A DNA stretch of 62,749 bases, counting the filler. It is 4 parts of 4 records of this genome, joined end to end, with 100 filler letters (N's around TTAATTAATTAA, not from the genome) between each part and the next. Parts side by side here need not be neighbours in the genome. Positions count along the whole stretch, not along the records: positions 28,605 to 39,518 come from SRR20825010_3747; 3 more parts are not named here. The stretch is one strand, 5' to 3'. The position numbers and the translations under genes are program-made. Numbering within the stretch: position 1 is the first letter of the stretch; every line of letters begins with the position of its first letter. Below the pieces are notes generated by a model that searched no databases, was not told the origin of the DNA, and worked only from the letters and a program-made list of their open reading frames with translations. Below are positions 8,761 to 61,200 of this stretch, piece by piece.

Positions 8761-10455
8761 ATGATACCAAGGAGCCCGTTGAAACAGGCAGTCGCGAAGT
8801 CACAAAGGTGCGGGCAATCCGAAAACCATACTTCGAGGCGAACGAGAACGATTGACTTGGCAAAACTGCTTCGCCGCTCGAGCGCAACCGTTGACTTGGG
8901 AGGATATGATGTGCCGCTCTATCCTATGACTCACCGACAATGTTTGAATGCTGCTTTGATCATGATGATTGACTCGATTCTCCGACAAGCCATTTCAGTG
9001 GGCTTGCTCGGGTGCGTATGTGTACTGGGCACACTCTCGGCCGGTACGGCTTGGGCCGCGAAACCCAATGTGGTGATGATACTGACCGACGACCAAGCAC
9101 CCTGGGCGTTCGCGGAAGCGGTTCGATCGGGGCAGTTTTCGGACGTGCCAATCCCCTCGACGCCGAACATGGATCGTTTGGCGGCCGAAGGTGCCGTTTT
9201 TCGCAACTTCTTTTGCACCACGCCGGTGTGCAGTCCCGCTCGCGCGACTTTGATGACAGGTCGCTACGCCAGCGAACTGGGGATCAAGGATTTCATCCCG
9301 CAACCCGGACACAAACTCTACGATCCCGACTCTCCAGTTTATTTGGATCCCGACAACACCGTGACTTTCGCGGAAGTGTTGCAGCAGCAGGGATACAAAA
9401 CCGGTCTGGTCGGCAAATGGCACCTCGGTGATTGGACAGCGAACGGCGATTCGGGGAAGCATCCGACGCAACACGGATTTGATTCGTTCATGGGATTGAC
9501 TGGAGGTGGAACGACGCCAGACAACCCCGAATTGGAACTCAACGGAAAGGTCCAACAGTTCCAAGGTTTGACCACTGATATCTTGACCGATCATGCGATT
9601 GATTTCGTGGAACAAAACGCTGACCGGCCCTTCTTCTTGTGCTTGTCCACCCGAGCACCTCACGGTCGGTGGTTGCCTGTCGCACCCGAAGATTGGCAGC
9701 CTTACGAAGAGATGGATCCAACGATCCCTCAATACCCGGACCTTGATACGGACTGGGTTCGCAAGAAGATGAAGGAGTACTTGGCGAGCACGTCAGGGGT
9801 CGATCGCAATCTCGGGCGGTTGCTGAAAACGCTCGATGCACAAGAACTGACGTCCAACACCATTGTGATCTTTACCTCGGATCACGGGTTCAACATGGGC
9901 CATCACGGGATCTATCACAAAGGAAACGGGATCTGGGCGACCAAGCAAAAGCCACCAGGCAAATTTCACCAAGGTACCCGAGTGATCTCGGACAAATACC
10001 GACCAAATCTTTATGACCATTCACTGCGAGTACCGGCAATCGTCCGTTGGCCGGGCGTGGTCAAACCATCCGCTGTGATCGAAGCCACCGCATCGCATTT
10101 GGATTGGTTCCCGACACTGTGTGCGATCGCCGGCGATGGCTCATCAGCCAAAGACTTGCCCGGCCGCGACTTGTCGCCGCTGCTGAAGGGTGAACCTCAG
10201 GACGACTGGGACCAAGCCCAGTACTTCGAGTACGACATGATCAACTACGCCGTCGCATCGCTCCGCGGTTATCGCACGCCGGAATACAAACTGATCCGCG
10301 ATCGGCACAATGAAGGCTGCGACGAGTTCTACGACCTAACGACGGATCCAGATGAAACAGTGAATCTGATCCGCAATCCGGGCTCGCAGGCAGTGATCAA
10401 AAGATTGGACGCGAAACTTCGCGCAATGGAAAAGAAATTGGAAGGGCCTCGGTGA
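8761..10455 (+). CDS. Exported formylglycine-dependent sulfatase
   Basis: KPNVVMILTDDQ, TPVCSPARATLMTG, GKWHLG, TSDHG. Real start probably near 8926-8965, ahead of the signal peptide. Confidence 0.92.
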   Translation: MIPRSPLKQAVAKSQRCGQSENHTSRRTRTIDLAKLLRRSSATVDLGGYDVPLYPMTHRQCLNAALIMMIDSILRQAISVGLLGCVCVLGTLSAGTAWAAKPNVVMILTDDQAPWAFAEAVRSGQFSDVPIPSTPNMDRLAAEGAVFRNFFCTTPVCSPARATLMTGRYASELGIKDFIPQPGHKLYDPDSPVYLDPDNTVTFAEVLQQQGYKTGLVGKWHLGDWTANGDSGKHPTQHGFDSFMGLTGGGTTPDNPELELNGKVQQFQGLTTDILTDHAIDFVEQNADRPFFLCLSTRAPHGRWLPVAPEDWQPYEEMDPTIPQYPDLDTDWVRKKMKEYLASTSGVDRNLGRLLKTLDAQELTSNTIVIFTSDHGFNMGHHGIYHKGNGIWATKQKPPGKFHQGTRVISDKYRPNLYDHSLRVPAIVRWPGVVKPSAVIEATASHLDWFPTLCAIAGDGSSAKDLPGRDLSPLLKGEPQDDWDQAQYFEYDMINYAVASLRGYRTPEYKLIRDRHNEGCDEFYDLTTDPDETVNLIRNPGSQAVIKRLDAKLRAMEKKLEGPR

Positions 10456-28504: not shown

Positions 28505-28604
28505 NNNNNNNNNNNNNNNNNNNNNNNNNNNNNNNNNNNNNNNNNNNNTTAATTAATTAANNNNNNNNNNNNNNNNNNNNNNNNNNNNNNNNNNNNNNNN
28601 NNNN
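28505..28604. other. Artificial contig spacer
   Basis: N44-TTAATTAATTAA-N44; the linker gives stop codons in all six frames. Confidence 0.99.
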
Positions 28605-28742
28605 ACCCAAGAGCCTGAGACCCAAGAGCCTGAGCCCCAGGAGCCTGAGACCCAAGGCCAACAAACCCCGGCGACCAGAAACCCGAAGGTGGATGGCCCC
28701 AAAGGTGATGAGCTCCAAAAGGCAGCTGAACTCACGACATAA
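28605..28742 (+). CDS. Probable 3' end of a gene with (T/P)QEPE pentapeptide repeats (truncated by contig edge)
   Basis: Three 15-bp units ACCCAAGAGCCTGAG x2 and CCCCAGGAGCCTGAG, read as TQEPETQEPEPQEPETQGQ...ELTT, stop at 28740-28742. Confidence 0.5.
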   Translation, partial: TQEPETQEPEPQEPETQGQQTPATRNPKVDGPKGDELQKAAELTT

Positions 28743-28838
28743 GCAGCCCCAAAACTCGATTGTCGGCGACAACTCGACACAACCCGCGCCGACGCCCGAG
28801 CCAAAACTTAAGCATACTCACACAATTACTGCCATTAT

Positions 28839-28860
28839 TAGAATCAGAATTCTAATTCTA
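28839..28860. promoter_or_regulatory. 22-bp near-perfect AT-rich palindrome
   Basis: TAGAATCAGAATTCTAATTCTA is self-complementary except for one pair and contains a GANTC site. Confidence 0.5.
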
Positions 28861-28917
28861 TTACAAGAAAAAAGAGCACACGTTCCACAATTAGAAATGG
28901 TGGTACTCGTTGAAGGT

Positions 28918-29001
28918 TCTCACTAAGTTTGTTTTTTCTCTCACAAAGCTTGCTTTTATTCTCACAAAGCCTGTTATTTCTCTCACTAAGCTTGTCGCAC
29001 A
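28918..29001 (+). repeat. Four abutting 21-bp direct repeats (core TCTCACWAAGYYTG)
   Basis: Units start at 28918, 28939, 28960, 28981: tctcactaagtttgttttttc / tctcacaaagcttgcttttat / tctcacaaagcctgttatttc / tctcactaagcttgtcgcaca. Confidence 0.95.
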
Positions 29002-29139
29002 CGGCCTTCGCTGGATGCTTGGCTGGCCCAACAGGTGTAAGGAGCGAGGTTTGTGCTCCATCCTCAACAGGGATATCTGGACGGCAACGTAGTGAGACTT
29101 AACGGAAGGCTAACGGGAAACAAGTCACACGAGATGTCC

Positions 29140-29423
29140 CACGAGGTCGTCCGTTCCTGCACATGAAGAGGCACGCGATTATGCCCGCTCGCTTATAGCT
29201 ACTCCCGGTTCCCCGCAATCCCGCAAACACAGAAAGAAGGTGGCGATGATCCGGAAGCCACCGAAAATGGAAAGGAGAAGTGCGTCTGCATAACATCGCC
29301 CCTCCTCACCCGTCCAAAACCGACAAACCGGCGGCAAAGGCGGGGAAGTAAGCTCATTCAATGTCCAAGTCTGACACCTCATGTATCTGCAATGCCGTCT
29401 CAGGCGAGTTTTTCAACGGAATA
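29140..29423 (+). pseudogene. Degenerate 3' remnant of an IS1182-like transposase with putative terminal repeat
   Basis: 29162-29248 translates to HEEARDYARSLIATPGSPQSRKHRKKVAM, resembling the HEEARDxAR...SRxxRKKVEM segment of alphaproteobacterial IS1182-family transposases (recall); GAGTTTTTCAACGGAATA at 29406-29423 resembles their terminal IR. Confidence 0.55.
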
Positions 29424-29459
29424 GGCCAGAAGCGATCATCATTGTTGTGATGGAAGCGC

Positions 29460-32012
29460 TCAAGGCGCTGCACCTCGCTGATATAGATATTGGCGCATTT
29501 TTACCGGGTCCAATGGCTTGTGCAGCACATCAAGTCCGGAGGACGCAAGCGCCCGCAGGTCTTCTGGCGCAGTTGCGCCGGTCACCACCAAAGCCTTCAG
29601 CTTGGGGTACTGCGACGAGATTCCGACATACAGGTCAAGGCCCGTTTTATTGGGGCCCAAACGGTAATCCGTTATCAACAAGTCAGGTGTGCCAAGGTCT
29701 TCCAGTGTTGCCAGGGCCGCTTCATACGAGTTGACGCCGCGAGCCGCATGGCCCCATTGCCGGAACATTTCCACCATGGCTTCCAGGCTCTCGCGGTCAT
29801 CGTCAACCACCAAGATTACCAGCCTTCGTGGACGCGCATCAACCGGCCGGGCTTTCTCGGATGCCATGCCGACAGGGCCTTCACAGGTAAATTTTTGCAT
29901 GGTGATTTGAAACCGCGTGCCCTTGCCCGGCAGGGACGAGAGCGCGATAGGCATGTCCATCAGCTTGCATAAATCGGCGACAATGGATAACCCGAGCCCA
30001 AGCCCGGCAGGGCCGCTGCTCTTTTTCTGCGACAATTGCACATAGCGATCAAATATCAGCTTTTGGTCATCAGCGCCGATACCTTTGCCATTATCCCACA
30101 CCTCAAGCACCACCGTATCGCCGCGCGGCCTTGCCCCCAGAAGCACATGCCCGCCAGGAGAAGCTTTAATGGCGTTTGTGAGCAAATTGATGGTCACACG
30201 TCTCAGGTGCTTTGGATCAGCCCAGACAAACAGGCCGCTGGGAACTATCTTGAGCGTCACATCATGCTGCGCTGCCGTAAGCTGCAGCGTAGTGCCCATG
30301 GTTTCAAAAAAGGCAGCCAGCGGTACCTTTTGCATATCGGCAACAAGCGTATTTGCCTCAAGCTGCGACGCATCCAACATTGTCTCGAGCATCTCGGACA
30401 GGGAGCCAATCAGCTTTTGCTGTTTCGCAGCGATAGCGGAAAGCGCCGGGTCCTGTGCAGCCTTATGCTGAAATGACTGATTGAAGAGGTTGAGCGCATG
30501 TACCGGCTGACGCAGGTCATGGCTGGCCGCAGAAATGAAGTTTGTTTTCTCGACGGCGCTTTTCTCCGCAACCAGTTTGGCGGCATTCGCTTCTTTAGTG
30601 CGGGTTATCACCCGGTCATCGAGCGTTTTGTTCAGTTGGCGCAGATCCCCCGCCAATTGCCGCGCACGGTCATATACAGCACGAGACTGGGCACCGAGCG
30701 CAATTGCATACCCAACGGAAAGGAACAGAAAACCAAACGGCATCAGGTCAGGGAAAGACGAAGGTCGCACATCCACGCTATGCAGATACAAAAGGCTGTC
30801 ATTGACCGCCGTGAATAGAAAAAGAGTGGTAAACAGTAGAATGGCACCTGCCCCGTCCCGTTTACGCCGCCAGGCAACAAGGATAGCCCCTTGCGAATAA
30901 AGAAGTGTCGCCAAGGCAAAAAAGATGAAGGCATCTTGCAACTGTGTGAAAAAGGACACCGGGAGCAATACAACGCTGGCAACAAAGGGTAATGACACTG
31001 CGTAAACCAGCCGCCGAACCAGGCGGGGAAATTCCTTCGGGAACATCGATGCCAGAAAGGTAAAATAAACCGCAGTAGACGAAAACAGGGTCAGATATTC
31101 CAGGGTTTTGGTACTAAAGTGCGGGAAAGCCGGAAATAACTTGAAGGGCATTGTTGTCAGCGTGGTCAAGCGCACGATCAAAACGGCAAGCAGGATACAA
31201 TACCAAAAATGCGACCACTCGGCATCCGACGACAAACTTCGGATAAAATAGGCAAGCTGAAAGGCGAGCAAGGCACAAATAGCGCCCAGCACAAAGAGAT
31301 AAGACAGGTCATACGCCTTGGCACCTTGCTCCAACCTGTCCTGAGCCGCAAAAATGGGGGGACGCAAAATACCTCCGGCGAAATGCTCAAAATTAGAGAC
31401 CGTCATCACAATCTCCACCTCTTCCTGCGCTGGTAGCGGGATGATCCGCTCCAGATAAAACGCCTGAAAACCATCCGGGGTTTCTGTTGGATGCCCGTTT
31501 CCCGCCACCTCGCGGCCATTCACCCAGATTTTATAACTGGAATACGGCGTTTGCAGCTTCAGCGCCTGACGCGGCCCACCAACAGGCAGCAACAGTTTCA
31601 ACCGGTAACTCGCCGCACCAAAGCCAACTGGCCAGTCGGGATCCGTGCTGTTTTCAGCCCTATCGTGCCAGCGGTCAGGGAAGGAGATTGTTTCGCCCCT
31701 ATAGGCGGCATCAAACCCCGCGGGGTCCACCAGCCTGCCGCGTATTACCTGCCATGGGCCCACAACCGGGACAGCGCTGTCCGCATCCCAGTCCCGCAGG
31801 TCAAGGGTGCCAGCGGCGGTATTCTGAGCAGAAACACTCGCTGCACCAAAAAACAACCCGGCGAACACAATATGAAGCATCAACCACAGAGACAAAAAGG
31901 CGCGTCGCTGACATTCAGCAAATGTGCCCGTGGACTTCTTTGATGCCTTACATACCGCCAAAGCCCGCGCCATAACCTGTTTTTTGTGATACTTACGGTA
32001 AAAAGACAGCAT
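29460..32012 (-). CDS. Hybrid sensor histidine kinase: periplasmic sugar-binding-like domain + 7TM-DISM-type TM region + HisKA/HATPase + REC
   Basis: GAASYRLKL..SYKIWVNG jelly-roll, about seven TM helices, ASHDLRQP H-box, NLLTNAIK, DNGKGI, GLGLGL, C-terminal ILVVDDD..LLITDYRL..KP receiver. Confidence 0.92.
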   Translation of the reverse strand: MLSFYRKYHKKQVMARALAVCKASKKSTGTFAECQRRAFLSLWLMLHIVFAGLFFGAASVSAQNTAAGTLDLRDWDADSAVPVVGPWQVIRGRLVDPAGFDAAYRGETISFPDRWHDRAENSTDPDWPVGFGAASYRLKLLLPVGGPRQALKLQTPYSSYKIWVNGREVAGNGHPTETPDGFQAFYLERIIPLPAQEEVEIVMTVSNFEHFAGGILRPPIFAAQDRLEQGAKAYDLSYLFVLGAICALLAFQLAYFIRSLSSDAEWSHFWYCILLAVLIVRLTTLTTMPFKLFPAFPHFSTKTLEYLTLFSSTAVYFTFLASMFPKEFPRLVRRLVYAVSLPFVASVVLLPVSFFTQLQDAFIFFALATLLYSQGAILVAWRRKRDGAGAILLFTTLFLFTAVNDSLLYLHSVDVRPSSFPDLMPFGFLFLSVGYAIALGAQSRAVYDRARQLAGDLRQLNKTLDDRVITRTKEANAAKLVAEKSAVEKTNFISAASHDLRQPVHALNLFNQSFQHKAAQDPALSAIAAKQQKLIGSLSEMLETMLDASQLEANTLVADMQKVPLAAFFETMGTTLQLTAAQHDVTLKIVPSGLFVWADPKHLRRVTINLLTNAIKASPGGHVLLGARPRGDTVVLEVWDNGKGIGADDQKLIFDRYVQLSQKKSSGPAGLGLGLSIVADLCKLMDMPIALSSLPGKGTRFQITMQKFTCEGPVGMASEKARPVDARPRRLVILVVDDDRESLEAMVEMFRQWGHAARGVNSYEAALATLEDLGTPDLLITDYRLGPNKTGLDLYVGISSQYPKLKALVVTGATAPEDLRALASSGLDVLHKPLDPVKMRQYLYQRGAAP

Positions 32013-32082
32013 AGATCAATTTCCCGGTTGTAGTGAATTGCTTTTTGCCGTCTGGTAAAGCTTCACAAAAACCGGGGCATAT

Positions 32083-32709
32083 ATGCCGACTGGCCTAGCC
32101 AAGATATTGATTGCGGATGACCATGCCCTGATAAGAGAGGGTATGGTATCCCTGCTGTCGCGCCTTGATAATATTGGCACCATTTCAGAAGCCGCCGACG
32201 GGAAAACCGCACTGAGTATATTGCAATCTGTCCCTATCAACCTTGCCATTCTGGACATCCACCTGCCCGGCTTGACCGGGCTAGATGTTGCGCGGGAGGT
32301 CAGAAACCGCAGCCTGGATATTCGCCTGATGCTCATGACCGGCGATATCAGCGAAGAGTTGGCCACATCTGCGATCAGGGAGCTATCGCTCGAGGCATAT
32401 CTGTTCAAAAAAAATGACATGCGCCAGTTCGAAACTGCGGTCAAAGCCGTGTTGACAGGCAACGTCTTTTTCCCACCGGAATTAGCCCTTGCCGATACCG
32501 GCGAAGCCACCAGCACCAATTCCTTGAGCGTGCGAGAACGCCAGGTGGTGAAACTCATCGCGGAAGGGCACACGTCAGAATCTGCTGCAAATGTTTTAGG
32601 CATAAGTCCTCACACCGTTCGAAAGCACCGGGAAAATATCAAGCGCAAGTTGGGCCTGGGCACTGTTGCCGAGCTTTCATCTTATGCAATGCGCAACCAG
32701 TTCCTCTGA
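32083..32709 (+). CDS. NarL/FixJ-family response regulator (REC + LuxR HTH)
   Basis: ILIADDH, AILDIHLPGLTG, LSVRERQVVKLIAEG..ISPHTVRKHRENIKRKLG; divergent from the kinase across 70 bp. Confidence 0.95.
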   Translation: MPTGLAKILIADDHALIREGMVSLLSRLDNIGTISEAADGKTALSILQSVPINLAILDIHLPGLTGLDVAREVRNRSLDIRLMLMTGDISEELATSAIRELSLEAYLFKKNDMRQFETAVKAVLTGNVFFPPELALADTGEATSTNSLSVRERQVVKLIAEGHTSESAANVLGISPHTVRKHRENIKRKLGLGTVAELSSYAMRNQFL

Positions 32710-32746
32710 ACTTCACGGCATTCTGAAGTGCCGTTGTGATTTGTAA

Positions 32747-32764
32747 ATACGCACATCTGCGTAT
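32747..32764. promoter_or_regulatory. Inverted repeat ATACGCA-N4-TGCGTAT, candidate operator for the response regulator
   Basis: Perfect 7-4-7 palindrome ending 64 bp before the first gene of the exported-protein operon. Confidence 0.6.
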
Positions 32765-32828
32765 GTACCTGCGCGCGCATGGCTTCCACTATACAGGCAG
32801 AGTTACGGATTAAGTCTCAGGAGCCGCT

Positions 32829-33551
32829 ATGCCTCGACTGCACCATTTCACACCCGCCAAGCTGGCTGCGGCGCTGTTCATCATAGCCGGGTTGATGCTT
32901 CAGCCCCTGATGGGGGCGTCGCCAGTTGCAGCATTCGACGACGTCAAAAAAATCAAGGCCCCAAAGGCCAAGAAGCGCCCAAGCCTTTCTTATAGACCCA
33001 ATTCCGTTCGGGGGGCGCTGAAATATAATGCTCGCGTCGGAATCCTGACCCTCCGGGACGCACGGGTGATGAAGTTCTTCGGCGGAACGGACGATTTTTT
33101 TGCCGAACCCGCGCCACAGGCAATCGGTGACAATCTCTATTTTGAAATGAAATCCAGCCGGCTCTTCAAATCCACGAAGCGCATTGACTGGACCCCCGGC
33201 ACCGAGCTTTCCAACACGCAATTGGCACAGATTGCCAAGCAAAATGGCGTTGATCTGATTTTTGTCGCTGACCTCCAGGCCTTCAATATGCTGCGCGAAA
33301 AAATGGTGTTGGAGAAAAAAGGTGTCGATTACAAAATCATCGTTCGCTTTGGCCTGTTCGGTCAATTGATCGACCCCGGCACCGGGAAAATCCTTTGGGC
33401 AGAGCAGGTCTCCCGCGAATTCAGCGGGTTGAACTCAACGGGCAGAATCAAGCCATATGACTATAGCGGAAACGCGCTTCAGGCCATGCAGGCAGGCTTT
33501 GACGATGTGAAAAAATATATTCGCGCTACAGGACTGGAGTACAGGCCATGA
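32829..33551 (+). CDS. Exported protein, possible CsgG/FlgT/LpoB/DUF799-like alpha/beta fold
   Basis: Signal peptide; VGILTL, IAKQNGVDLIFV and LIDPGTGKILW pattern recalled for this fold group; AGGAG RBS. Confidence 0.7.
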   Translation: MPRLHHFTPAKLAAALFIIAGLMLQPLMGASPVAAFDDVKKIKAPKAKKRPSLSYRPNSVRGALKYNARVGILTLRDARVMKFFGGTDDFFAEPAPQAIGDNLYFEMKSSRLFKSTKRIDWTPGTELSNTQLAQIAKQNGVDLIFVADLQAFNMLREKMVLEKKGVDYKIIVRFGLFGQLIDPGTGKILWAEQVSREFSGLNSTGRIKPYDYSGNALQAMQAGFDDVKKYIRATGLEYRP

Positions 33552-34129
33552 AGAAACAGTTCTCGCTTCTTGCAGCCATTATATTTGCAACAGCCGCAAC
33601 ATTCACACCGCGCACCGCTTTTGCTGACGACGATTTCCTCGACAGCATTTCCCAGCAACTTCGTTTCCGGGAGGCCTACTCCTACCGCTACAAGGTAGAA
33701 CAGCGCAGCGTAGCGGTTGGTGTGGAGACCTTTGGCAAAAAAGAACAGCAACGCATACTGGGCGATAAAACTGGCGATTTTGTTACGCTGGATGTCGCCG
33801 TCACGAACGACACACCAATACGGGTTCACCTGAACGATATTTATGTGGTCTCAAAAGGCAAACCAGCGCGTCAGCAAGACCTGAATTTCGTAGTTAAGGA
33901 TGTCGGTCCGGGCGGCGGAGGCAAAGGCAACCTGCGCATGTCAATTCTGCGCAAGAACCTTTTTGAGAAATCCCTCCATACGGGCGTGATCGAGCCGGGC
34001 GAAACAGTTCAGGGCATCGTTTTCATCAAGAAAAAACACCTGAGGAAATCCGGCACGCTTCATGTCCGTGTCCAGAACCTGCGGCAAGTGGCGTATCTGT
34101 CTTATAAAATTCCATTCCGTGTTGAATAA
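33548..34129 (+). CDS. Exported protein, DUF4352-like Ig fold
   Basis: Signal peptide ending AFA-D; FVTLDVAVTN...IEPGETVQGIVF pattern; ATGA overlap with the previous gene. Confidence 0.7.
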   Translation: MKKQFSLLAAIIFATAATFTPRTAFADDDFLDSISQQLRFREAYSYRYKVEQRSVAVGVETFGKKEQQRILGDKTGDFVTLDVAVTNDTPIRVHLNDIYVVSKGKPARQQDLNFVVKDVGPGGGGKGNLRMSILRKNLFEKSLHTGVIEPGETVQGIVFIKKKHLRKSGTLHVRVQNLRQVAYLSYKIPFRVE

Positions 34130-34141
34130 AGGGGTACTTGG

Positions 34142-34942
34142 GTGACGAAGTTTTCATGCCATAAAAAGGCTGCCTGCGTCCTTGCGGGTATCCTGTTTTG
34201 CTATGGTGTGCCCGTGGGGGCGCACGACTACGGCACAGCAAGCGCTCAACAGCCCGCCTCCCTGCCCGCACCTGAATCGACCGCAATCAACCAAAGCGCT
34301 TTCACGCGGGCTGTCGCGGCAGGGGCGTTGCGAAACCAGGCATTGGTACAGTGGCGATCCTTCCAGCAAACGGGCGATGATGCCAGCCTCGCCAGCACAC
34401 TCAAATACCTCGCCGAGGCGATAGCGCTGGCACCCGACAGCAAAGCCACCTGGCAATTGGCCGCGCGAGTTCATTATTCGCTAAAATATATTCCTGACTT
34501 TAAGGTCGAAACCGTCAACAGCCTTGAAAAACTCGCGCAGCTGGACCCTGAGAACCTTTCTTCGCGCATTCTGTTGGTGGATGAGCTTATTTCCTTGGCG
34601 GAATGGCAGCGTGCTATCCTTCATCTGGAAGCCATATTCAGCATCAACCAGCCAATTGCCGTTGATACAGTGCTTGACCGAATGGTCCTCTGTTACCTGA
34701 AAGCAGAATGGCAAGAACGCGGCGCCGCCTTTTTTCGCGATCAGCTCGCCACGGCCTATGTGAAGGAACCTCTGTTGATTTCAGGCGCTGTCATGGAACG
34801 GCGCATGGGGGACAATACCGCCGCATACGCAAGCTTGGGGCAAGTTCTGTTCAGCCAGACAGCGAGCAGGCCTATGCGGGCGAAAGCGCGGCAACTCAAG
34901 ACCTTCTGGCAGGAAATCGACACCCCCCCAGTGAGGAGCTAA
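34142..34942 (+). CDS. Exported TPR-like protein
   Basis: Signal-like N-terminus; helical repeats AIALAPDSKATWQLAARV and LAQLDPENLSSRILL. Confidence 0.78.
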   Translation: MTKFSCHKKAACVLAGILFCYGVPVGAHDYGTASAQQPASLPAPESTAINQSAFTRAVAAGALRNQALVQWRSFQQTGDDASLASTLKYLAEAIALAPDSKATWQLAARVHYSLKYIPDFKVETVNSLEKLAQLDPENLSSRILLVDELISLAEWQRAILHLEAIFSINQPIAVDTVLDRMVLCYLKAEWQERGAAFFRDQLATAYVKEPLLISGAVMERRMGDNTAAYASLGQVLFSQTASRPMRAKARQLKTFWQEIDTPPVRS

Positions 34943-34946
34943 CGCA

Positions 34947-36662
34947 ATGAAAAAACCGGCTTTTCTTGAACCTTGGTTCTCCACACAGCGCGCTAGAGCA
35001 TTAACTGCCAGTATTATTCTGTGTACTGGCCTCCCTGCCACAGCAGCGGCTGCACTGGAAACGCAAACAACAATCAGCAGTGCCACTTCCGCACAACAAA
35101 CAGGCCCCAAAAACACAACGAACAAATCTGCCGGGAAAAAAACCGCCGAGAAAGAAGATGACGACGAGAAAAGCAAGGCCGAGAGCTTTCAGGAAAATCT
35201 TGAAACCGCAAAAGAAGCTTACGAGAAGGTCGGCGCCGAGATACTGGACGGCAATTATGGCAAGGCACTAGACGGTGCCGCTGACATGGCCAAAGACAAA
35301 TTGATCGAAAAGGCAGAAGATGCACTCAAGAAAAAGAATGAAAATTTATACAAGGCTTACAAACACGGCAAGGACATCAAGGATGACGTGCTGAAAGGCG
35401 ATTACCTGGCTGCATGGGATAAAACCAAAGACGCCGCCTATGACGAAGCCAAGGACTATGTACAGGACAAAGTGATTGAAAAGGTAATTCCCGGCTATGG
35501 TCAATTGAAAGGGGCATGGGATGCGGGCTACGCCACCGGTGAGCTTGTAGGGCAGATACCTATTTCAGCCGACGGCAGAACGGTGAACAGCATGGCAGAA
35601 GCACAAATGCGCCAGAAATTCTTTGGCGCGCAAGATCACGCAACCTCCAAACAGGAAGCCTACAACGAGATAATTCTGGCGTTGGTCGCAAGCGTCAAGA
35701 AAGGCGAATACAAGCTGCCCGACTATATGACCTTCAGCGATGCGCGCGAGATCATTCAGGAAAACATAGACGGTGACCGGCCAGTTTTTGAAGGGTTCAA
35801 AGCCTGGGCTGCGAATGAGCTGAGGGACGAGGATGTTGTCGGTCCAGTCGCCGCGCCACCTGCCAGCCCGGCAGTGACGCCTGAAACGCTGCCCGCCACG
35901 CTGGCCACACACACGCCACCCGATACCACACCCGGCGCCACACCCGACGCCACACCGGCGCCACACCCTGAACCGGTCGAGGAAGACCCGTGGGCGTTGG
36001 ACCCGGCACCGCGACAGGTGATGCCAGCGGCTGAAAACAGCGAGTTCCCATCCCAGCAGGCGGCCCAACCCCCAGCCCAGCCCTCAGCCCAGCCTGAAGA
36101 AGACATCTGGGCCACCGACGACCCCGGTGACAGCGATTTTGTCGAGGCAGAAAGATACCGCCTGCAACAACAGCTCGAGGCAGAGAAAGAGCATGCCCGG
36201 GCGATTGCAGACAGTGCAAGTTACCAGAAATTCGCCGCAGCCGAAGCAGAGCGCGAGGAAGAAGCGCGCAGGAAAGCCGAAAAATCCCGCAAACTTCGGG
36301 AGGGCATGAATGCGCTGGCGCAAGGGCTTGGCCAGATCGCACAGCAAATCCAGCACGCTCAACAAGGTGGCACCCCGCCGCAGGCGACATCAGGCTCAAC
36401 CAGCGCTTCGGGGAAACGCACCTACACCGCCGCAGAAAAGGCCGCTGCCATCTATCAGGCATGCGTGCAACGCACAGGCGACCAAAAAGGATGTCGCAGC
36501 ATGGCTGGCACAGGCGCCAAGCTGGACAATGATTTGTCTCAGGGCAAAATTCCCATGGACTTCATCAAAAAACTCTGCCGCGACGCGGCAGACAGCAACA
36601 AAAACTATGAGCGTTGCGTCTCAGACAAGGTTGCAGAAATGAAACGGCGGATGGGTCAATGA
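34947..36662 (+). CDS. Large exported hypothetical protein (helical N-domain, Pro/Thr linker, coiled coil, four-Cys C-terminus)
   Basis: 571-aa ORF with GAGG RBS and signal peptide; Lys/Asp-rich helical repeats; TPGA-TPDA-TPAP linker; two C-terminal Cys pairs. Confidence 0.8.
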   Translation: MKKPAFLEPWFSTQRARALTASIILCTGLPATAAAALETQTTISSATSAQQTGPKNTTNKSAGKKTAEKEDDDEKSKAESFQENLETAKEAYEKVGAEILDGNYGKALDGAADMAKDKLIEKAEDALKKKNENLYKAYKHGKDIKDDVLKGDYLAAWDKTKDAAYDEAKDYVQDKVIEKVIPGYGQLKGAWDAGYATGELVGQIPISADGRTVNSMAEAQMRQKFFGAQDHATSKQEAYNEIILALVASVKKGEYKLPDYMTFSDAREIIQENIDGDRPVFEGFKAWAANELRDEDVVGPVAAPPASPAVTPETLPATLATHTPPDTTPGATPDATPAPHPEPVEEDPWALDPAPRQVMPAAENSEFPSQQAAQPPAQPSAQPEEDIWATDDPGDSDFVEAERYRLQQQLEAEKEHARAIADSASYQKFAAAEAEREEEARRKAEKSRKLREGMNALAQGLGQIAQQIQHAQQGGTPPQATSGSTSASGKRTYTAAEKAAAIYQACVQRTGDQKGCRSMAGTGAKLDNDLSQGKIPMDFIKKLCRDAADSNKNYERCVSDKVAEMKRRMGQ

Positions 36663-37165
36663 GAACACCTGACCGCATCTGCCGCCTTTGCGGTGACCCG
36701 GGCATGAAACCCGAAAGTCGAGACTGGACAGGCATGGAAACAACCGTCACCTACGCATGCCCAGGCTGTGACAACACCGTCAAGTTTAATGCCCTTAGCC
36801 AGGCCGGGTTAATGTCGGCGCTTGGGCTGATTGTGCTCGCGATCGTGACATTCTTCATGGTGGAAAGTCCGGGTATGTGGGAAACCAGCGATTTTCTGAT
36901 TTATGGCGGAATTCTATTGGCATGTGCATACGTGCCCCTGAACATTTTACTGCCCCACTGGCGCTACCCTATATCCCCTGAAGGCGGAAAACGCGCGCCG
37001 GTGACGCCTGACGACAACAGCCTCCACCAAAGCACAAGCGACCCGCTCAGGCGCAAGATCATCGAATTTGAACGTCACGGGTTCTGGCGCGGGTTTTTAA
37101 CCCCCATCGTTTTCATCGTTATCGTTCTGGCCGCTGCCACGCTTATTGGCATGCTGACTTTTTGA
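36659..37165 (+). CDS. Zinc-ribbon (CxxC...CxxC) membrane protein
   Basis: ATG 36659 overlaps the previous TGA (ATGA); CRLC and CPGC, then three hydrophobic helices. Confidence 0.78.
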   Translation: MRTPDRICRLCGDPGMKPESRDWTGMETTVTYACPGCDNTVKFNALSQAGLMSALGLIVLAIVTFFMVESPGMWETSDFLIYGGILLACAYVPLNILLPHWRYPISPEGGKRAPVTPDDNSLHQSTSDPLRRKIIEFERHGFWRGFLTPIVFIVIVLAAATLIGMLTF

Positions 37166-37223
37166 GAAGCTGCCTTTTTGGTAGCACGCTCCTTTCGCCT
37201 CTCTCTAACTAAAGGTCGTCTCA

Positions 37224-38858
37224 ATGTTTTGTCGGGTTTTGCATATATTGGCTTCTTTCAGCATTATTTTTTTGCTGCCATCGCCACAGGCCGCCGCACA
37301 GTCACCTGACTGGGAAAGCGTATTTTCCGAGTGGAGCAAGAACCACCCCGAACAGGTACAACTATGGGAAAAGGCCAAACAAGACGCAGAAAAAAACGAG
37401 AAGCGGATCAAGGATCTCTCCGACAAGGCCTTCCAGCAGTCTTTTGACGCTGTTTTCGGCAAGGATGTATACAAGCCGTCGGAAGCACTGGGGGTGATGA
37501 AAGCGTTGGAGGCGGCATCGGCAGGCGACTTTCATGCCGCGGGGGAAACCACGAACGCCCTGTTGATCAGCCGCTATATGCCGGTGTTGGGGCAATATAT
37601 TACGGCCATGAACACTCTGGCATCAGGCATACGGTCTGCAGAACAGGTCTGGATAAAAGGGCTGGAGGAAACGCCGGCCTATGAGCGCTTCATAACCATC
37701 TATGCCGAGCGCAAGGCAGGCCGCGGCGCTTATATCCCCAGCTATATGATTACCTATCTGCGCAACAACAAGCTGCTGGGCGGCGAGATCACAAAAATAT
37801 ACAACGACATGCGCGCACGGGAAGACCGCATGTTTGAACGCTGGCAAAGCGACACCTTTGAGATTGAACGTTTGCGGCTCGCCCCTTGGGCATCGCAGTG
37901 GCGGTCAGCCCGTGGCAAGGTGCCGGACCCGCGCCAGATGTTTAACTATTTCCTCTATAATCTGGTCAAGGATGCCAAGCATGTATATCTGGAGCGCTTC
38001 ACCGATGAATATATACGCCCCCTTATCCGCCGGGAGGCCTACAATCAGGAACAGAAGATCGCCCACACCATGGCAGCTGCGCTGCAGAGCATTTCAGCTC
38101 AGGCAGCCTCCGGCGACAACCCGGCTGCGCAGTGTGCCGCCCATGCCAGATCATATCAGGAAAACATAGCTGCCATGAGCGGTAAGAAGCGGGAAATTCT
38201 GTCATTTTATAGCCGCGTAAAAACCGCCTACACACGAAAGTTTGACTCCTACCTCCGATCAGACAACGCCATTCAGGCGGAGCGGCGGCGGCCATTGGAA
38301 GAAGAGAAAGAACGGCTGGAGGCCGACCACAAAAAGGCACTCGCCCTGAAGGAAGAGGCCGATAGGCTAGACGAGCGCCTTCGCAGCATGGGCAGCGAGA
38401 TTTCAAGCATGCGGGCCGTACTCCCCCCCACATCGGATACAAGCGCCCACAACGCGGCGATCTCCTCGCTGAATGCGAAAATCAGCAGCTACAACAGCTT
38501 TCGCTCAAGCGAGTATCTGCCTGCAAAAAGGGCTGCTGACGCAGCGGGCGAAGCCTATAACGAAGCGGCAGACGCCCATGACGCCAAGCAGGAAGCTTTT
38601 TACGGGGACAAAGTGATCGACAGCCAAAACCAGCGTCTGGTCCGCCAGTTCACCCGCATCAGAAAGTCGATGGAATATTTCAACGCGCCGCAACGAACCT
38701 GCCTCAATTTCGCGAAAGTCGCAATGGAGGACAATATGCAGCAACTGATCGGCATGGACCCCGCGCCGGGCATCGCCATGTGCAATGTCTGGGAAACCCA
38801 TCGTCAAGCCGCCTTGAAAAGTGGCAAAGCTAGTCAGGCTGACAACTGTGGCAAATAA
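37224..38858 (+). CDS. Large exported hypothetical protein with long coiled coil
   Basis: 544-aa ORF; signal peptide ending AAA-Q; heptad-rich C-terminal half with several Cys. Confidence 0.8.
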   Translation: MFCRVLHILASFSIIFLLPSPQAAAQSPDWESVFSEWSKNHPEQVQLWEKAKQDAEKNEKRIKDLSDKAFQQSFDAVFGKDVYKPSEALGVMKALEAASAGDFHAAGETTNALLISRYMPVLGQYITAMNTLASGIRSAEQVWIKGLEETPAYERFITIYAERKAGRGAYIPSYMITYLRNNKLLGGEITKIYNDMRAREDRMFERWQSDTFEIERLRLAPWASQWRSARGKVPDPRQMFNYFLYNLVKDAKHVYLERFTDEYIRPLIRREAYNQEQKIAHTMAAALQSISAQAASGDNPAAQCAAHARSYQENIAAMSGKKREILSFYSRVKTAYTRKFDSYLRSDNAIQAERRRPLEEEKERLEADHKKALALKEEADRLDERLRSMGSEISSMRAVLPPTSDTSAHNAAISSLNAKISSYNSFRSSEYLPAKRAADAAGEAYNEAADAHDAKQEAFYGDKVIDSQNQRLVRQFTRIRKSMEYFNAPQRTCLNFAKVAMEDNMQQLIGMDPAPGIAMCNVWETHRQAALKSGKASQADNCGK

Positions 38859-39348
38859 CGGTAGGTATACGCCCCCGGTTGGCGAGATGGAAACTTTGAA
38901 CTTTGTATCAGACATGTCTGCTTTTGCCCCCTACTCGGACAAACACACTCCAAAACAGGAAACGGCACTTATTCCCCGTCAGCGCATCGCCGAGAATGGG
39001 AACTCGGATGACGAAACGGCGCAATCATTTTACAGGGCGCATCGGGACCAATATATCCCCCTCTCGCTCATAATTGGTTTCGCAACCAAATTCGTCCCGA
39101 CCAATAGCAAGCTGCTCTCAAAATTAACCGAAGCCTCGCTCGCCAGAGCGGTAAAAAGTGCCTCCGAAACCGAATATCTCGGCCTACCTGGCCATCGTCG
39201 TTTGCAGTGCATCAGCTTCAAGGCTCTTGGCCGCTTAAAGGACTCACTTAGCTGCCCACACAACGGGACAAAAATCCCCCGCATAGACCCAATATTATGG
39301 CAAACAGCCCTGTCTAGCGTCACCGGCAGCTGGCAGTAGCGATCAAAC

Positions 39349-39467
39349 CAAACTTAGTGAGAAATTCGTGGTTCAAATCAATCTTTCCGATAATCTCTGA
39401 CAAGCTTGGTGATAACCTTCCAATAAGACCGCAGTTTCTGGAGTTGTAAAAATCACCTTATGTGAGA
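39349..39467 (-). repeat. Three spaced, inverted copies of the 28918-29001 repeat motif
   Basis: Reverse strand: tctcactaagtttg (39349-39362, identical to the first 14 bp of left unit 1), tatcaccaagcttg (39401-39414), tctcacataaggtg (39454-39467); spacing 52 and 53 bp. Confidence 0.85.
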
Positions 39468-39518
39468 GCCCACAGCTCGTTGATGTCACGCGTCACAAAT
39501 CACCGGATTCTGCGTCAC

Positions 39519-39618
39519 NNNNNNNNNNNNNNNNNNNNNNNNNNNNNNNNNNNNNNNNNNNNTTAATTAATTAANNNNNNNNNNNNNNNNNNNNNNNNNN
39601 NNNNNNNNNNNNNNNNNN
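39519..39618. other. Artificial contig spacer
   Basis: N44-TTAATTAATTAA-N44. Confidence 0.99.
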
Positions 39619-39733: not shown

Positions 39734-40021
39734 GGTGTTCCTCAACTGCTTCTGATTACTAAAGTATGACTGATTTGAAAACCGCGTAATAAATCACTAC
39801 CTCTCGTAAGCATACTTTAGGTCAGAATGAATGAGCTGTCCAGACGCAGATTTCAAGGCGGAATTCACGACCTGACGACGCATTGGCAATTCATCTCATA
39901 TTTCTGTTTGTTGATCTGAAATACTCGCTCCCGGTATGGCATTTTGTTAGGATGATATCAGACAATAGAGACCCATTGATGTGACCATCCTGATTTTATC
40001 CTGCAACAGAGAGGCCTCACC

Positions 40022-41203
40022 GTGCGTTCATTGGTTCGCCCCATTTCATTTCTGATCACCCTGCTGCTGTTCACTCCATTTATTCAGGCTGAGGAAAATG
40101 CGGATCAGACCGATCCAGCGCTTGTTGCCCCACCCGTCAACACATCCCCCGGAAAAGAGTATTCAGACGACACGCGGATGTTCCAGGGAATTCCCGGACT
40201 GTCCCGCGCTGCCGACGGACGTCTGTGGGCACTCTGGTACGCCGGTGGAACGGGTGAAGGCGAACTGAATTATGTCGTACTCGTCACCAGTGGTGATGAC
40301 GGTAAAACCTGGTCGGGTCCCAGACTGGTGATTGACCCTCCCGGTCCGGTCCGCGCTTATGATCCGGCGATCTGGCATGATCCCAGCGGTCGCATGTGGG
40401 TTTTCTGGGCACAATCCTTTCGCTGGTGGGATGGTCGCAGTGGTGTCTGGGCGATTACAACGGATGATTCCGATCAGGAAAACCCGAAATGGACAGAACC
40501 TCGCCGCCTGTGTAACGGCATTATGATGAATAAACCAACGGTTCTCTCGAACGGAGACTGGTTGCTGCCGGTCGCAATCTGGAAACAGCCCGCGAAAGAA
40601 TCCATCGAACACCGTTTTGATCTGCCTGAAGAACGTGGCGGTAATATCTTCATTTCCAAAGACCAGGGGAAAACATTTCAGCTGCTGGGACAAACTGACG
40701 TGCCCGAACGAACATTCGACGAGCATATGATTGTGGAACGAAAAGACAGCAGTCTCTGGACTCTGGTCAGAACCCGCTACGGAATTGGAGAATCCTTTTC
40801 AACTGACGGAGGTAAAACCTGGTCTGATGGAACTGCGTCCGACATTCCGCATGTGAATGCCCGGTTTTTTATTCGGCGGCTGAAATCGGGAAATCTGTTA
40901 ATGGTCCGACACAACCCCGAAGACAAAAAATCCCGCCGTGATTTGACTGCGTTTCTTTCTAAAGATGATGGAAAAACCTGGGAGGGAGGACTACTCCTGG
41001 ATGAACGATCTGGCGTTTCGTATCCGGATGGAGTTCAAAGCGACGATGGTACGATTTACATCATTTATGATTTCGCGCGGACCCGAGATAAAAAAATCCT
41101 GATGGCAACCTTTACAGAGGAAGATGTACTGGCGGCAAAACCAGTCTCAGATAAAGCACGCCTGCGTGTGCTTGTCAATCAGGCAACGGGGACCCAAAAA
41201 TAA
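40022..41203 (+). CDS. Exported BNR/Asp-box sialidase-like protein
   Basis: Signal peptide; FQGIP; four Asp boxes (SGDDGKTWS, SKDQGKTF, STDGGKTWS, SKDDGKTWE); SYP near the C-terminus. Confidence 0.88.
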   Translation: MRSLVRPISFLITLLLFTPFIQAEENADQTDPALVAPPVNTSPGKEYSDDTRMFQGIPGLSRAADGRLWALWYAGGTGEGELNYVVLVTSGDDGKTWSGPRLVIDPPGPVRAYDPAIWHDPSGRMWVFWAQSFRWWDGRSGVWAITTDDSDQENPKWTEPRRLCNGIMMNKPTVLSNGDWLLPVAIWKQPAKESIEHRFDLPEERGGNIFISKDQGKTFQLLGQTDVPERTFDEHMIVERKDSSLWTLVRTRYGIGESFSTDGGKTWSDGTASDIPHVNARFFIRRLKSGNLLMVRHNPEDKKSRRDLTAFLSKDDGKTWEGGLLLDERSGVSYPDGVQSDDGTIYIIYDFARTRDKKILMATFTEEDVLAAKPVSDKARLRVLVNQATGTQK

Positions 41204-44083: not shown

Positions 44084-44183
44084 NNNNNNNNNNNNNNNNN
44101 NNNNNNNNNNNNNNNNNNNNNNNNNNNTTAATTAATTAANNNNNNNNNNNNNNNNNNNNNNNNNNNNNNNNNNNNNNNNNNNN
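44084..44183. other. Artificial contig spacer
   Basis: N44-TTAATTAATTAA-N44. Confidence 0.99.
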
Positions 44184-58200: not shown

Positions 58201-61200
58201 ATCCAGACTGATACTATAACTCAGGCTTTCCCCATTAGACGTTAACCCCAGAGCGGTAAGTGCATCCGTGGTAGCCACTGTAAACTCAGTATCAATACTG
58301 TCTTCGGCTTTGGTTACGTCTAGCGAGCCAGTGGCTGTTAGTGAGCCAGGATCCGGATCTGCACCGGTCGGCAAATTCTCCTCGTCTACGCTGCTATTCA
58401 CCGGCGTACCCACCTCGGGCACCGTATCTGTCACGGTGATTTGTTGCGTGGCTGAAGCCGCACTGATATCCCCGTCGTTATCAATGACGCGATAACTAAA
58501 ATCATCTCTCAGTTCGGTATCGTTAGCGGGTTTTATATGGTCCGCAGAATCAATGGGCGTATATGTCCAGCTACCATCTTGTTGAACAGTGAGTTCACCA
58601 AATTGGGTGCTTACCGTCAGCCCGCCATTACCGACCGCCACATTGGTTTGCGCATTCCCGTTAGAATCCGTATAGCTGATGTCGTAAATAAAACCGCCAT
58701 CAGCACCTAACGTATCGTTACCCAACAGGTTATCGCCACCATTCGCCGAGCCGACCGCGGCCGCGCCTTCAACCACACTAACAGCGCTATCGTCGACAGG
58801 TATCGAGGGGATGTCATCTGTCACATTGATGGTCAGCGAACCATCCACATCAGAATCGATATCCGAGACCACATAGTTCACGTTAACAGGAAGGTTATTC
58901 TCTCCATTAGCGATGCCATGATCCAATGGCTGCTCTAGTGTCATGGTGATACTTTGCAGGGCACCAGCGGCATCGCCAGGATTGTTCAACTGCAACGTGA
59001 AGATGGTGTTACCACCAATGGCAGCGGTTAACGTATGCCCATCGGGACTGATGTCAAAATCATCTACCAGCAGATCTATTCCACCGGAACTGAGTCCCTG
59101 ACTGGCAAGATTGGCTTTAGTTGCCTCATCAAAAACAACATCAGCAATATCATCCTGGCCCTTGGTTATACCAAGGTTCACCGTGACTTCATTATCAACA
59201 ATGGCATTAGCGCTACCCAAGCCGTTGATATTTTCTTCATCGATAGCCAGCGTCACCGTGTTATCGGCGGTTGGATCCGTATCAGTAATGATAATTGGCT
59301 GATTGGCCTGATTGGAGATACTTCCGTCGTTATCAACCAAACGATAACCAAAGCTACCGGCATTTGAAGAACCAGTGCCATCGTGTTCATAGCTGGCGTT
59401 CGGGACGAAATTCCAACCACCGTCAGCATTCACCGTTAGAATACCCGTTGGAGTGGTAACCGCCTGAGTCAAAACGAGGGGCAAGAATTCAAAGGTCTGA
59501 GTATTACCTGTCACGTCGGTGTAACTAAAGTCATAAATGGTCGGCGAGCCATCTTCTGAGGGTATATCGTTCCCGATCAGATTACCGGACAACAGGGCGG
59601 TTCCCTCCGGCGCGGTAACCGACGAATCATCCACGGCAACCGGCGTGGTATCCGTTACACTGAGCGGCTGATCCGCCCAACCGCTGACATCGTCATCGCC
59701 ATCGATCAGGTTGTAACTAAACAGGTCATCAACCGCTACACCATTGCTATGTTCAACAGAAGTATTGCTGGTATATGACCAAGTGCCATCACTATGAACG
59801 GTCAGGCTGCCATATTGCGTAGTGACTACTCCGGTATTGCCTCCCTCAGCAACAGTAATGATTTGTTGATCACCATTAATGTCCGCGTAACGAACCTGGT
59901 TTATACGAGCGCCATCGGCTCCTTGGCTGTCGGCCACGCCCCCGGTGATAAGATTAGTGCCACCGCTGGCCGATCCCACTGTGACGCCACCTTCGGATAA
60001 GCTAATACCCGCCTGGTCTACGGCGGTGGGCACATCGTCGTTGACGGTAACGTCAAAACTACCCGTGGCCGTATCACCATCGTTATCGGTGACGACAAAA
60101 TTGAACGGCAAATCAATCTGGGCATCATTCCCGGGTTGGTCGTGATCCAGAACGCCAGAGAGCACGAACGAATAGCCCGCATTGGCAGCTTCGGGGTTTG
60201 TAATGGTCGCGACAAATATCGTATTGCCGTCAGCAGTCGCCGTTAACGTATGGCCATCGGCACTTAGCTCATAGCTCAATGCCTCGTTGTTAGACGTTAA
60301 TCCCAAACCCTGGAAATCGGCTTCAGTGGTAGACACGAACGTCGTATCAACGCCGTCTGCAGACAACCCAATATCCAAACTGCCGGTTTGTGTTAGCGCG
60401 CCATTGTTAACTGAAGAGCCTCCAGCCAGGTTTGCCTCACTGACGCTTGCATCCTCCGGCACACCCACGCTGGGCCCGTCGTCTGTGAAGACAAATTTAT
60501 CCCCTATATCAATAGTCTGGCTGCTACTGGCGCTATCACCATCAGCATCCGTAATGGTTGCGGTACCGGTCAGCGTGATGAGGCCGGCTAACAGGGCTTT
60601 CGTATCGCTACTGAAGTCCGCGCTATTAGCCTCTGCCGTATCATGATCGATGGCCGCATTTTGCGTGAGTGTCACCACGCCAGTAGTCGCATCCACGGCG
60701 ATGGTGAATACCGTATTACCATCCGCTTGCGCCGTAATGGTATTACCGGACAGGGCCACCGTAATGGGCTCTCCATTGCTGCTCAGCCCGGTAGCTGGAT
60801 CGGTAACCGCTAATGCATAATTCCATACGGTGCCACCGTCACCGTCTTCACCTGCATTTGAAGCAGTAACGGAAAAGGCACCGGAAAAGTTCGCCGTGTC
60901 AGTACTGGTACCCGAAGCGGTATCGGCATCATCGGTTGTTAGCGCATTTGGTAACGTGCCCGTAACGCCTGCCGTAATGCTCGGCCCATCATCCTTGAAA
61001 CTAAAACGATCGCCGATAGCAATGCTGCTGGTAACCGTATCGGCATCGCCATCCGTAGCAGCGGCCACAATGTTGATGGCATTTTCAACGATGGTGACTG
61101 CATCATCCGGGTTATTGGTATCCGCGTGCTTCACCGCCCGCTGTTGATCCAGAGTGATCTCGCCGGTGGCGTCATTAATACTGATCGTTAATACCGTTTG

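Follow-up and report, generated by a model that had tools for sequence, protein, structure and literature searches.

The segment 28911-39474 of the 62,749-nucleotide (nt) stretch of DNA analysed here (the window) is best read as a discrete 10,564-bp derivative of a Tn7-type transposon, which carries a two-component system and seven further open reading frames (ORFs) between two asymmetric ends and encodes no transposition genes of its own. We put the probability of this reading at roughly 0.78. Within it, movement as a non-autonomous element is close to an even bet, and loss of the tns genes after insertion is a weaker, tentative option. The original prediction is largely supported. The element, its ends and its immediate flanks are as follows.

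28911-39474, plus strand: whole element, 10,564 bp from TG to CA, without transposition genes
28905-28910, plus strand: left flanking duplication, ACTCGT
28911-29001, plus strand: left end, of the Tn7R type, with terminal TGAAGGT followed by four abutting 21-bp sites
29084-29097, minus strand: weak inverted copy of the site, with 3 mismatches
39349-39474, minus strand: right end, of the Tn7L type, with three inverted sites and then terminal GCCCACA (TGTGGGC on the reverse strand)
39475-39480, plus strand: right flanking duplication, GCTCGT

The element lies on a contig of 10,914 bp (28605-39518), which leaves a flank of 306 bp on its left and of 44 bp on its right. This contig matches the complete 4.18-Mb chromosome of a marine Kordiimonas sp. 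(G001) in 10,914 of 10,914 bases (100% identity). Coordinates beyond 39518 continue the numbering of the window along that chromosome.

With regard to the ends, the two arrays, the termini, the flanks and the weak copy at 29084-29097 had all been reported in the original prediction, and every coordinate was confirmed. The left sites (TCTCACWAAGYTTG) start at 28918, 28939 and 28981 with 0 mismatches and at 28960 with 1, at a period of exactly 21 bp. The right sites, which are inverted and spaced by 52 and 53 bp, occupy 39349-39362 (0 mismatches), 39401-39414 (2 mismatches) and 39454-39467 (4 mismatches, ungapped); the last of these retains the TCTCAC core only and was found as a 75% inverted pair. 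TCTCAC begins at base 8 of both ends: the seven bases before it are TGAAGGT on the left and, on the reverse strand, TGTGGGC on the right, where the terminus reads TGT. The four close sites fill an end of 91 bp, and the three dispersed inverted sites an end of 126 bp. Both arrays are situated at gene 3' ends, and no gene starts close by. When up to 2 mismatches are allowed, 6 matches to the site occur in the window against 1.17 expected; 0 of 100 shuffles attained as many as 6. At up to 1 mismatch, the whole chromosome of G001 exhibits 11 matches, 5 of which lie at the locus of the element, and 2 matches to a reversed-pattern control.

The available text of a description of Tn7 (10.1101/154229) gives its ends an 8-bp terminal sequence ending in TGT/ACA and 22-bp TnsB sites, four of which overlap within ~90 bp at the right end and three of which are dispersed over ~150 bp at the left, together with a target duplication of 5 bp. 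The element thus shares with Tn7 and Tn7-like transposons a terminus starting with TG, repeated sites of ~21-22 bp and the arrangement of four close (~90 bp) and three dispersed (~125-150 bp) sites, as far as that text describes them (10.1101/154229). Further common features are a short target duplication, a four-site end that faces a conserved sequence tens of bp away and a position beside the end of an older element. In contrast to these transposons, the element exhibits no tnsA, tnsB, tnsC or tniQ, a TGA left terminus and a duplication of apparently 6 nt (5/6 identical). The site itself, TCTCACWAAGYTTG, is presumably unrelated in sequence to that of Tn7. TG...CA termini, several asymmetric transposase sites per end and a 5-bp duplication are also characteristic of two members of the same transposase superfamily, namely Mu, a phage with three sites per end, and Tn5053/Tn402, which are without TnsA and have 25-bp inverted repeats.

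The element is a discrete insertion, absent from an otherwise identical site in a natural population. Logan contigs from four public runs (X1-X4) were compared with the locus of G001, and one contig of run X3 joins 28904, the base before ACTCGT, straight to 39475 (GCTCGTTGATGTCAC). It omits 10,570 nt, which correspond to the 10,564-bp element and one 6-nt flank copy, from the TG of the right terminus to the end of the left flank copy. The original prediction had anticipated an empty allele with A or G at one variable base; the allele found retains a single copy, GCTCGT, with G at this position. The contig has a depth of 4.82, extends for 63 nt on its shorter side and contains no ambiguous letters. 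We take the join as real DNA, because a 31-mer assembly graph cannot make it from an 8-nt repeat. The occupied allele is represented in run X2, the contigs of which bridge both junctions. Among the contigs listed for X1 and X4, none joins across the element or bridges a junction, and nothing is concluded from these two runs. The two flank copies, ACTCGT and GCTCGT, are identical at 5/6 positions, and the duplication can be read either as 6 nt with one change or as 5 nt (CTCGT) with an extra G at the right end.

Between its ends, the element carries the following genes.

29460-32012, minus strand: hybrid sensor histidine kinase with 7TMR-DISM_7TM, HisKA, HATPase_c and receiver domains
32083-32709, plus strand: LuxR/NarL-type response regulator
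32829-39339, plus strand: seven co-oriented ORFs of 240, 193, 266 (TPR), 571, 183, 544 and 172 amino acids

The seven ORFs gave no informative family match in Pfam or NCBIfam. Searches of all nine cargo proteins (9/9) against these two collections revealed no transposase, integrase or Rep protein, and none of the nine gave a match to TnsB (rve plus Mu-transposase C-terminal domain), TnsC/TniB or TniQ/TnsD. Twelve Tns proteins were further used as tblastn queries against the contig, namely eight encoded by operons of G001 (seven with Tns-family Pfam matches and one without an assignment) and four from metagenomic relatives; nothing scored below E 0.02, and no tns remnant was detected. The description of the element as transposase-less in the original prediction is therefore upheld. 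No transposase gene is present within ~20 kb on each side of the element in G001, and the lone transposase trace near it is a 56-amino-acid C-terminal fragment of rve_3 (27.1 bits) ~640 bp to its right.

Elements that combine similar ends with tns-like genes were observed in metagenomes. A pattern comprising TG, a stretch of five bases of which the third is G, and three TCTCAC units 20-21 bp apart matched at least 116 loci, most of which are unrelated tandem repeats. At 13 of the loci listed, the end consists of TG, 5 nt and TCTCAC, with four abutting sites, and the outside flanks diverge exactly from the base before TG. At eight of these 13 loci, a TnsA-like ORF (PF08722, 21.7-28.5 bits) starts 90-204 bp inside the end. 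The ORF that follows it matches rve weakly in loci L124 and L160, and in L153 it is followed by a TnsB2-like stretch (tblastn with TnsB2 of G001, E 6e-7). TnsA2 of G001 is 30-33% identical to the metagenomic TnsA-like ORFs (tblastn). Locus L162 exhibits two such elements in tandem, in which the terminus of the first is followed by 5 nt and then by the three-site end of its neighbour; at the far end, the one such end that was read, TCTCAC begins at base 8 and three sites are spaced by 44 and 35 nt.

The metagenomic elements at L105, L124, L144-L146, L153, L160 and L162 thus have in common with the element of G001 the placement of TCTCAC, which occupies bases 8-13 at either end, four abutting sites (20-21-bp period) on the gene-proximal side and three spaced sites at the far side. 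They differ from it in that they encode a TnsA-like protein and, in some cases (L124, L160 and L153), a weakly rve/TnsB-like ORF, and in their TGTCG termini and site sequence, of which only TCTCAC and a TTG six bases later are shared. The expectation that transposase-linked elements would share these ends was accordingly borne out for the layout and the TCTCAC core, and the agreement does not extend to the full site sequence. By its ends, the element would belong to a TCTCAC-end group of Tn7-like elements, which has not been described as such in the literature searched. Outside the four-site end, a flank of ~170 nt is conserved in L124, L146 and L160; in most copies, a GATT stands at a distance of 15 nt from the terminus. 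These features point to a specific attachment site for the metagenomic elements; an Rfam search of these flanks returned no family.

The left end of the element is also found in G013, which is a different species with flanks 81-88% identical to those of G001. G013 exhibits the same left terminus at the same place (1 bp off) and in the same orientation, with three sites rather than four; beyond the end, unrelated DNA follows with the end of a porin-like gene, and the contig then stops. The 146-nt right end has no match in G013, G019, G024 or G014. Similarity running through a proposed terminus, which had been named as a refuting case, is indeed seen at the left terminus in G013, for the sole reason that the same end is present there. 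Between G001 and G013, the first 53 nt of the end agree at 52/53 positions, the adjoining 37-nt flank at 28/40 alignment columns and a 38-bp motif at 35/38. As the end is kept better than the flank, the cargo differs and a close relative has an empty site, independent and site-specific insertions of related elements in the two species would fit better than a single ancient insertion, although shared descent could also account for two occurrences.

The 38-bp motif is a candidate for the determinant of this specificity.

28836-28873, no strand assigned: 38-bp palindromic intergenic motif, upstream of a TetR-family gene and 37 bp from the insertion point

Of 40 relatives searched for the motif, 11 gave matches of 87-100% identity, 8 of them at 92-100%, and in the six loci examined it always lies upstream of the same TetR-family gene. 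The four-site end is located 36-37 bp from it in both G001 and G013. In G019 and G024, the motif is followed after ~31-55 bp by the terminus of a repeat named RE-500, with no TCTCAC sites and no cargo between them; in G001, this terminus lies 6 bp beyond the end of the element. We regard the palindrome as a candidate for an operator or for the determinant of an attachment site. Neither an Rfam family nor a tRNA was returned when the flanks of the element were scanned. Just downstream of the motif, the mobile DNA varies between species: it is the TCTCAC element, RE-500 or, in G014, an IS-like (insertion sequence) gene.

In the mechanism that we propose, a TnsB-type DDE transposase would bind the TCTCAC sites, pair the ends and cut at the TG/CA termini. 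Insertion would proceed with a short staggered duplication, the four-site end being oriented toward the 38-bp palindrome 37 bp away, which would be the target recognised by a TniQ/TnsD-type selector. The element would have landed directly beside the terminus of an older repeat element, RE-500. An insertion between an attachment sequence and an older element, with shared duplicated bases, has the look of tandem Tn7-like insertions, as in the tandem of L162. The transposase would have been supplied in trans, G001 having two Tn7-like operons, or its gene would once have lain beside the four-site end and been lost by deletion since.

One of the two operons of G001 (930648-935927) encodes TnsA, TnsB, TniB and TniQ. 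The other (908618-913244) encodes TnsB, TniB and TniQ, preceded by an ORF of 197 amino acids; because this ORF, upstream of tnsB, has no Pfam match, the operon may be without TnsA. The ends of both operons were sought by BLAST and through inverted 11-mers, direct 9-mers and hexamer clusters, and nothing convincing was obtained. It is conceivable, as a speculative extension of the Tn7-type reading, that the element is an active natural 'mini-Tn7', in which a resident operon moves a cargo-only element in trans, a TniQ-type selector aims it at the palindrome upstream of the TetR-family gene, and cargo-only relatives have landed independently in two species. In engineered mini-Tn7 and mini-Tn6022 constructs, the available part of one report likewise describes cargo between the ends and proteins supplied in trans (PMC11014353). 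The element would be the natural counterpart of mini-Tn7.

Several observations weigh against the assignment of the segment to a Tn7-type derivative. At the ends, the third right-end site, with its 4 mismatches, is weak, the left terminus reads TGA, in G013 as well, so that the canonical TGT is absent there, and the duplication is not a clean 5 nt, as it comprises either 5 nt and an unexplained G or 6 nt with a mismatch. The empty allele is represented by a single contig from a single run (X3). As for possible partners, neither Tn7-like operon of G001 was found to be flanked by TCTCAC-type ends, this genome contains one copy of the element, and the only other TCTCAC cluster in it (924585-924714) is a degenerate stretch of 130 bp between the two operons. 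As for its distribution, an order-wide scan for the end in 401 genomes yielded matches in 3, one of which is due to chance, leaving G001 and G013 as the only carriers, and G001 is the sole genome with the end in a scan of species-representative genomes. In neither scan was this exact end sequence found beside a transposase, and the G013 assembly contains no match to TnsA or to the Mu-transposase C-terminal domain anywhere. Among the metagenomic TnsA-like matches, 1/8 passes the PF08722 cut-off of 26.5 bits and 7/8 fall below it. Furthermore, the search pattern itself imposed TG-N5-TCTCAC x3, and the common layout is thus partly a matter of construction; the adjacent tns genes, the sharp TG boundary, the fourth site and the three-site far end were not imposed by it.

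The scan of species-representative genomes was made for two adjacent sites. Of the 52 loci that it returned, only L037, in G001, matched past the 10-mer, and this locus matched the flank of the element too. The other 51 were rejected as unrelated tandem repeats that share just TCTCACWAAG. The cluster at 924585-924714 (L091 ~9585-9714) exhibits a terminal 13-mer identical at 12/13 positions to the left terminus of the element, two direct sites and three inverted TCTCAC/TCTCAG sites; it has no flanking duplication and adjoins a fragment of RE-500. It may be a miniature or broken relative of the element.

The alternative that survives best is that the segment is an immobile relic of an autonomous Tn7-like insertion, which lost tnsA/B/C/tniQ via an IS-linked deletion, the empty allele being the ancestral, never-occupied site. 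We regard this as possible, with the odds against it. It draws on the following feature.

29128-29158, plus strand: solo terminal inverted repeat of an rve-type IS, 31 bp, 218 bp inside the four-site terminus

Because this repeat sits where tnsA would start in the related metagenomic family, in which the TnsA-like ORFs begin 90-204 bp inside the end, an IS-linked deletion of the tns genes is a live alternative, and we infer a link between their loss and this IS end remnant. The presence of a single copy of the element and the degeneracy of 2/3 right-end sites are also consistent with a relic. Decay of this kind has precedents in decayed Tn7-like islands, such as those of Acinetobacter at glmS and comM, in which cargo persists between the ends after tns loss; the available text of PMC11014353 reports Tn7-like insertions at glmS in 54/203 genomes, functional-looking in 21/203. 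The element in G001 differs from those islands in having two ends that look complete, an empty allele alongside it in nature and, in a sister species, the same end with other cargo. A relic would also require two independent losses, since G013 exhibits the same end and site with other inner DNA, no tns gene beside it and no TnsA/TnsB match in its genome. Moreover, the conservation of the end relative to the flank (52/53 against 28/40 columns) is as expected of a sequence in use or recently transferred.

It is far less probable that the segment is a genomic island rather than a transposon, formed by site-specific or microhomology recombination between CTCGTTGA repeats, with the arrays serving as sites for a regulator, for example its own LuxR-type regulator. 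Eight identical bases, CTCGTTGA, do span both junctions, the segment encodes a DNA-binding response regulator, and the locus varies from species to species between flanks that are conserved. However, no integrase or recombinase is present within or beside the segment, the position of the arrays at gene 3' ends offers no nearby gene start to regulate, and the inverted four-versus-three layout with TG/CA termini resembles that of TnsA/TnsB-bearing elements. A crossover within the 8-nt repeat would furthermore retain the A of the left flank, whereas the empty allele has G. The distribution of the cargo also counts against this reading: homologues of the first four of the seven co-oriented ORFs adjoin the same right-flank kinase gene in G013, inverted and at 33-55% identity, two homologues occur in G004, and homologues of the kinase/regulator pair occur in G023 and G007, yet no TCTCAC sites surround any of these clusters. 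The last alternative, raised as a caveat in the original prediction, that the left array represents plasmid or phage iterons at an origin and the contig a small replicon, takes its appeal from the four direct repeats at a ~21-bp period and from a contig of just 10.9 kb, and can be set aside, as the contig corresponds, at 100% identity, to a stretch inside the 4.18-Mb chromosome, has no terminal overlap over its 10,914 bp, encodes no Rep protein and matches none of 72,556 plasmid records.

If the Tn7-type derivative was indeed moved in trans, islands without mobility genes could nonetheless move, and Tn7-family cargo would be undercounted; transposase-less islands would then form a hidden mobile part of the Tn7-family cargo traffic. 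Surveys of Tn7-like elements begin from core transposition proteins, according to the available part of PMC8649781, and because of this starting point cargo-only elements are invisible to them. Gene-based annotation would miss the element as well. No natural non-autonomous Tn7-like cargo element is described in the titles and abstracts searched, a coverage that leaves most subscription journals outside. The locus also offers two natural ends of compact size (91 and 126 bp), a defined pair of occupied and empty sites, and a candidate for a new kind of attachment site, namely an intergenic palindrome instead of a protein or RNA gene.

The sequence to the right of the element belongs to RE-500.

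39481-39518, plus strand: start of RE-500, a ~500-bp multi-copy repeat whose terminus abuts the right duplication

RE-500 was considered as the element's own continuation and was ruled out as such, being multi-copy and having a sharp terminus at the base after the duplication. Several copies are present in G001, G013, G014 and G019, together with one aligned copy in G024. In G001, the other copies lie at 2946116-2946615, 2934330-2934509 and 924190-924512, and the copy beside the element is at L061. In 4/5 other full copies aligned, the match starts at the element-proximal base or one base in. RE-500 has its own 22-bp internal repeats (GCGTCACA...), and an inverted end precedes many of its copies in a back-to-back arrangement. 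We take this inverted end, or RE-500 terminus, to resemble the inverted repeats of Tn402/Tn5053, a resemblance that the TCTCAC element itself does not share. An inverted pair of RE-500 copies encloses ~12.3 kb of ordinary-looking genes without a transposase, and this stretch is possibly another transposase-less element.

The solo IS repeat at 29128-29158 recurs in the opposite orientation next to the rve_3 fragment, ~600 bp past the end of the contig. Further copies of this 31-bp repeat are located at 40075-40105 and 59427-59457 in the extended numbering and at 1481010-1481050 in G001. Related copies accompany a 106-amino-acid rve_3 ORF several times in G016. Between RE-500 and the IS repeat, contigs of runs X2 and X4 lack a 92-nt stretch (extended 39983-40076; L063 2443-2536), an indication of an insertion/deletion polymorphism among strains.

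The window itself consists of separate contigs joined by linkers of 44 N, TTAATTAATTAA and 44 N.

28505-28604, 39519-39618 and 44084-44183: linkers, N44-TTAATTAATTAA-N44

The remaining contigs of the window encode planctomycete-type families (PSCyt1/2, PSD1 and DUF1501) and numerous sulfatases. Two of these three contigs, the two neighbours of the element contig, were searched against G001 and gave no match. As the element contig is identical to G001 and its neighbours are without a match there, this contig is of alphaproteobacterial origin and the sequence content of the window indicates a mixed or contaminated assembly. The contig ends at 39518 because the multi-copy repeat RE-500 begins there. 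At its other end (28605-28746), the contig begins within a tandem 15-bp repeat that would encode a PEPETQ-like low-complexity tail, which probably explains the left contig break.

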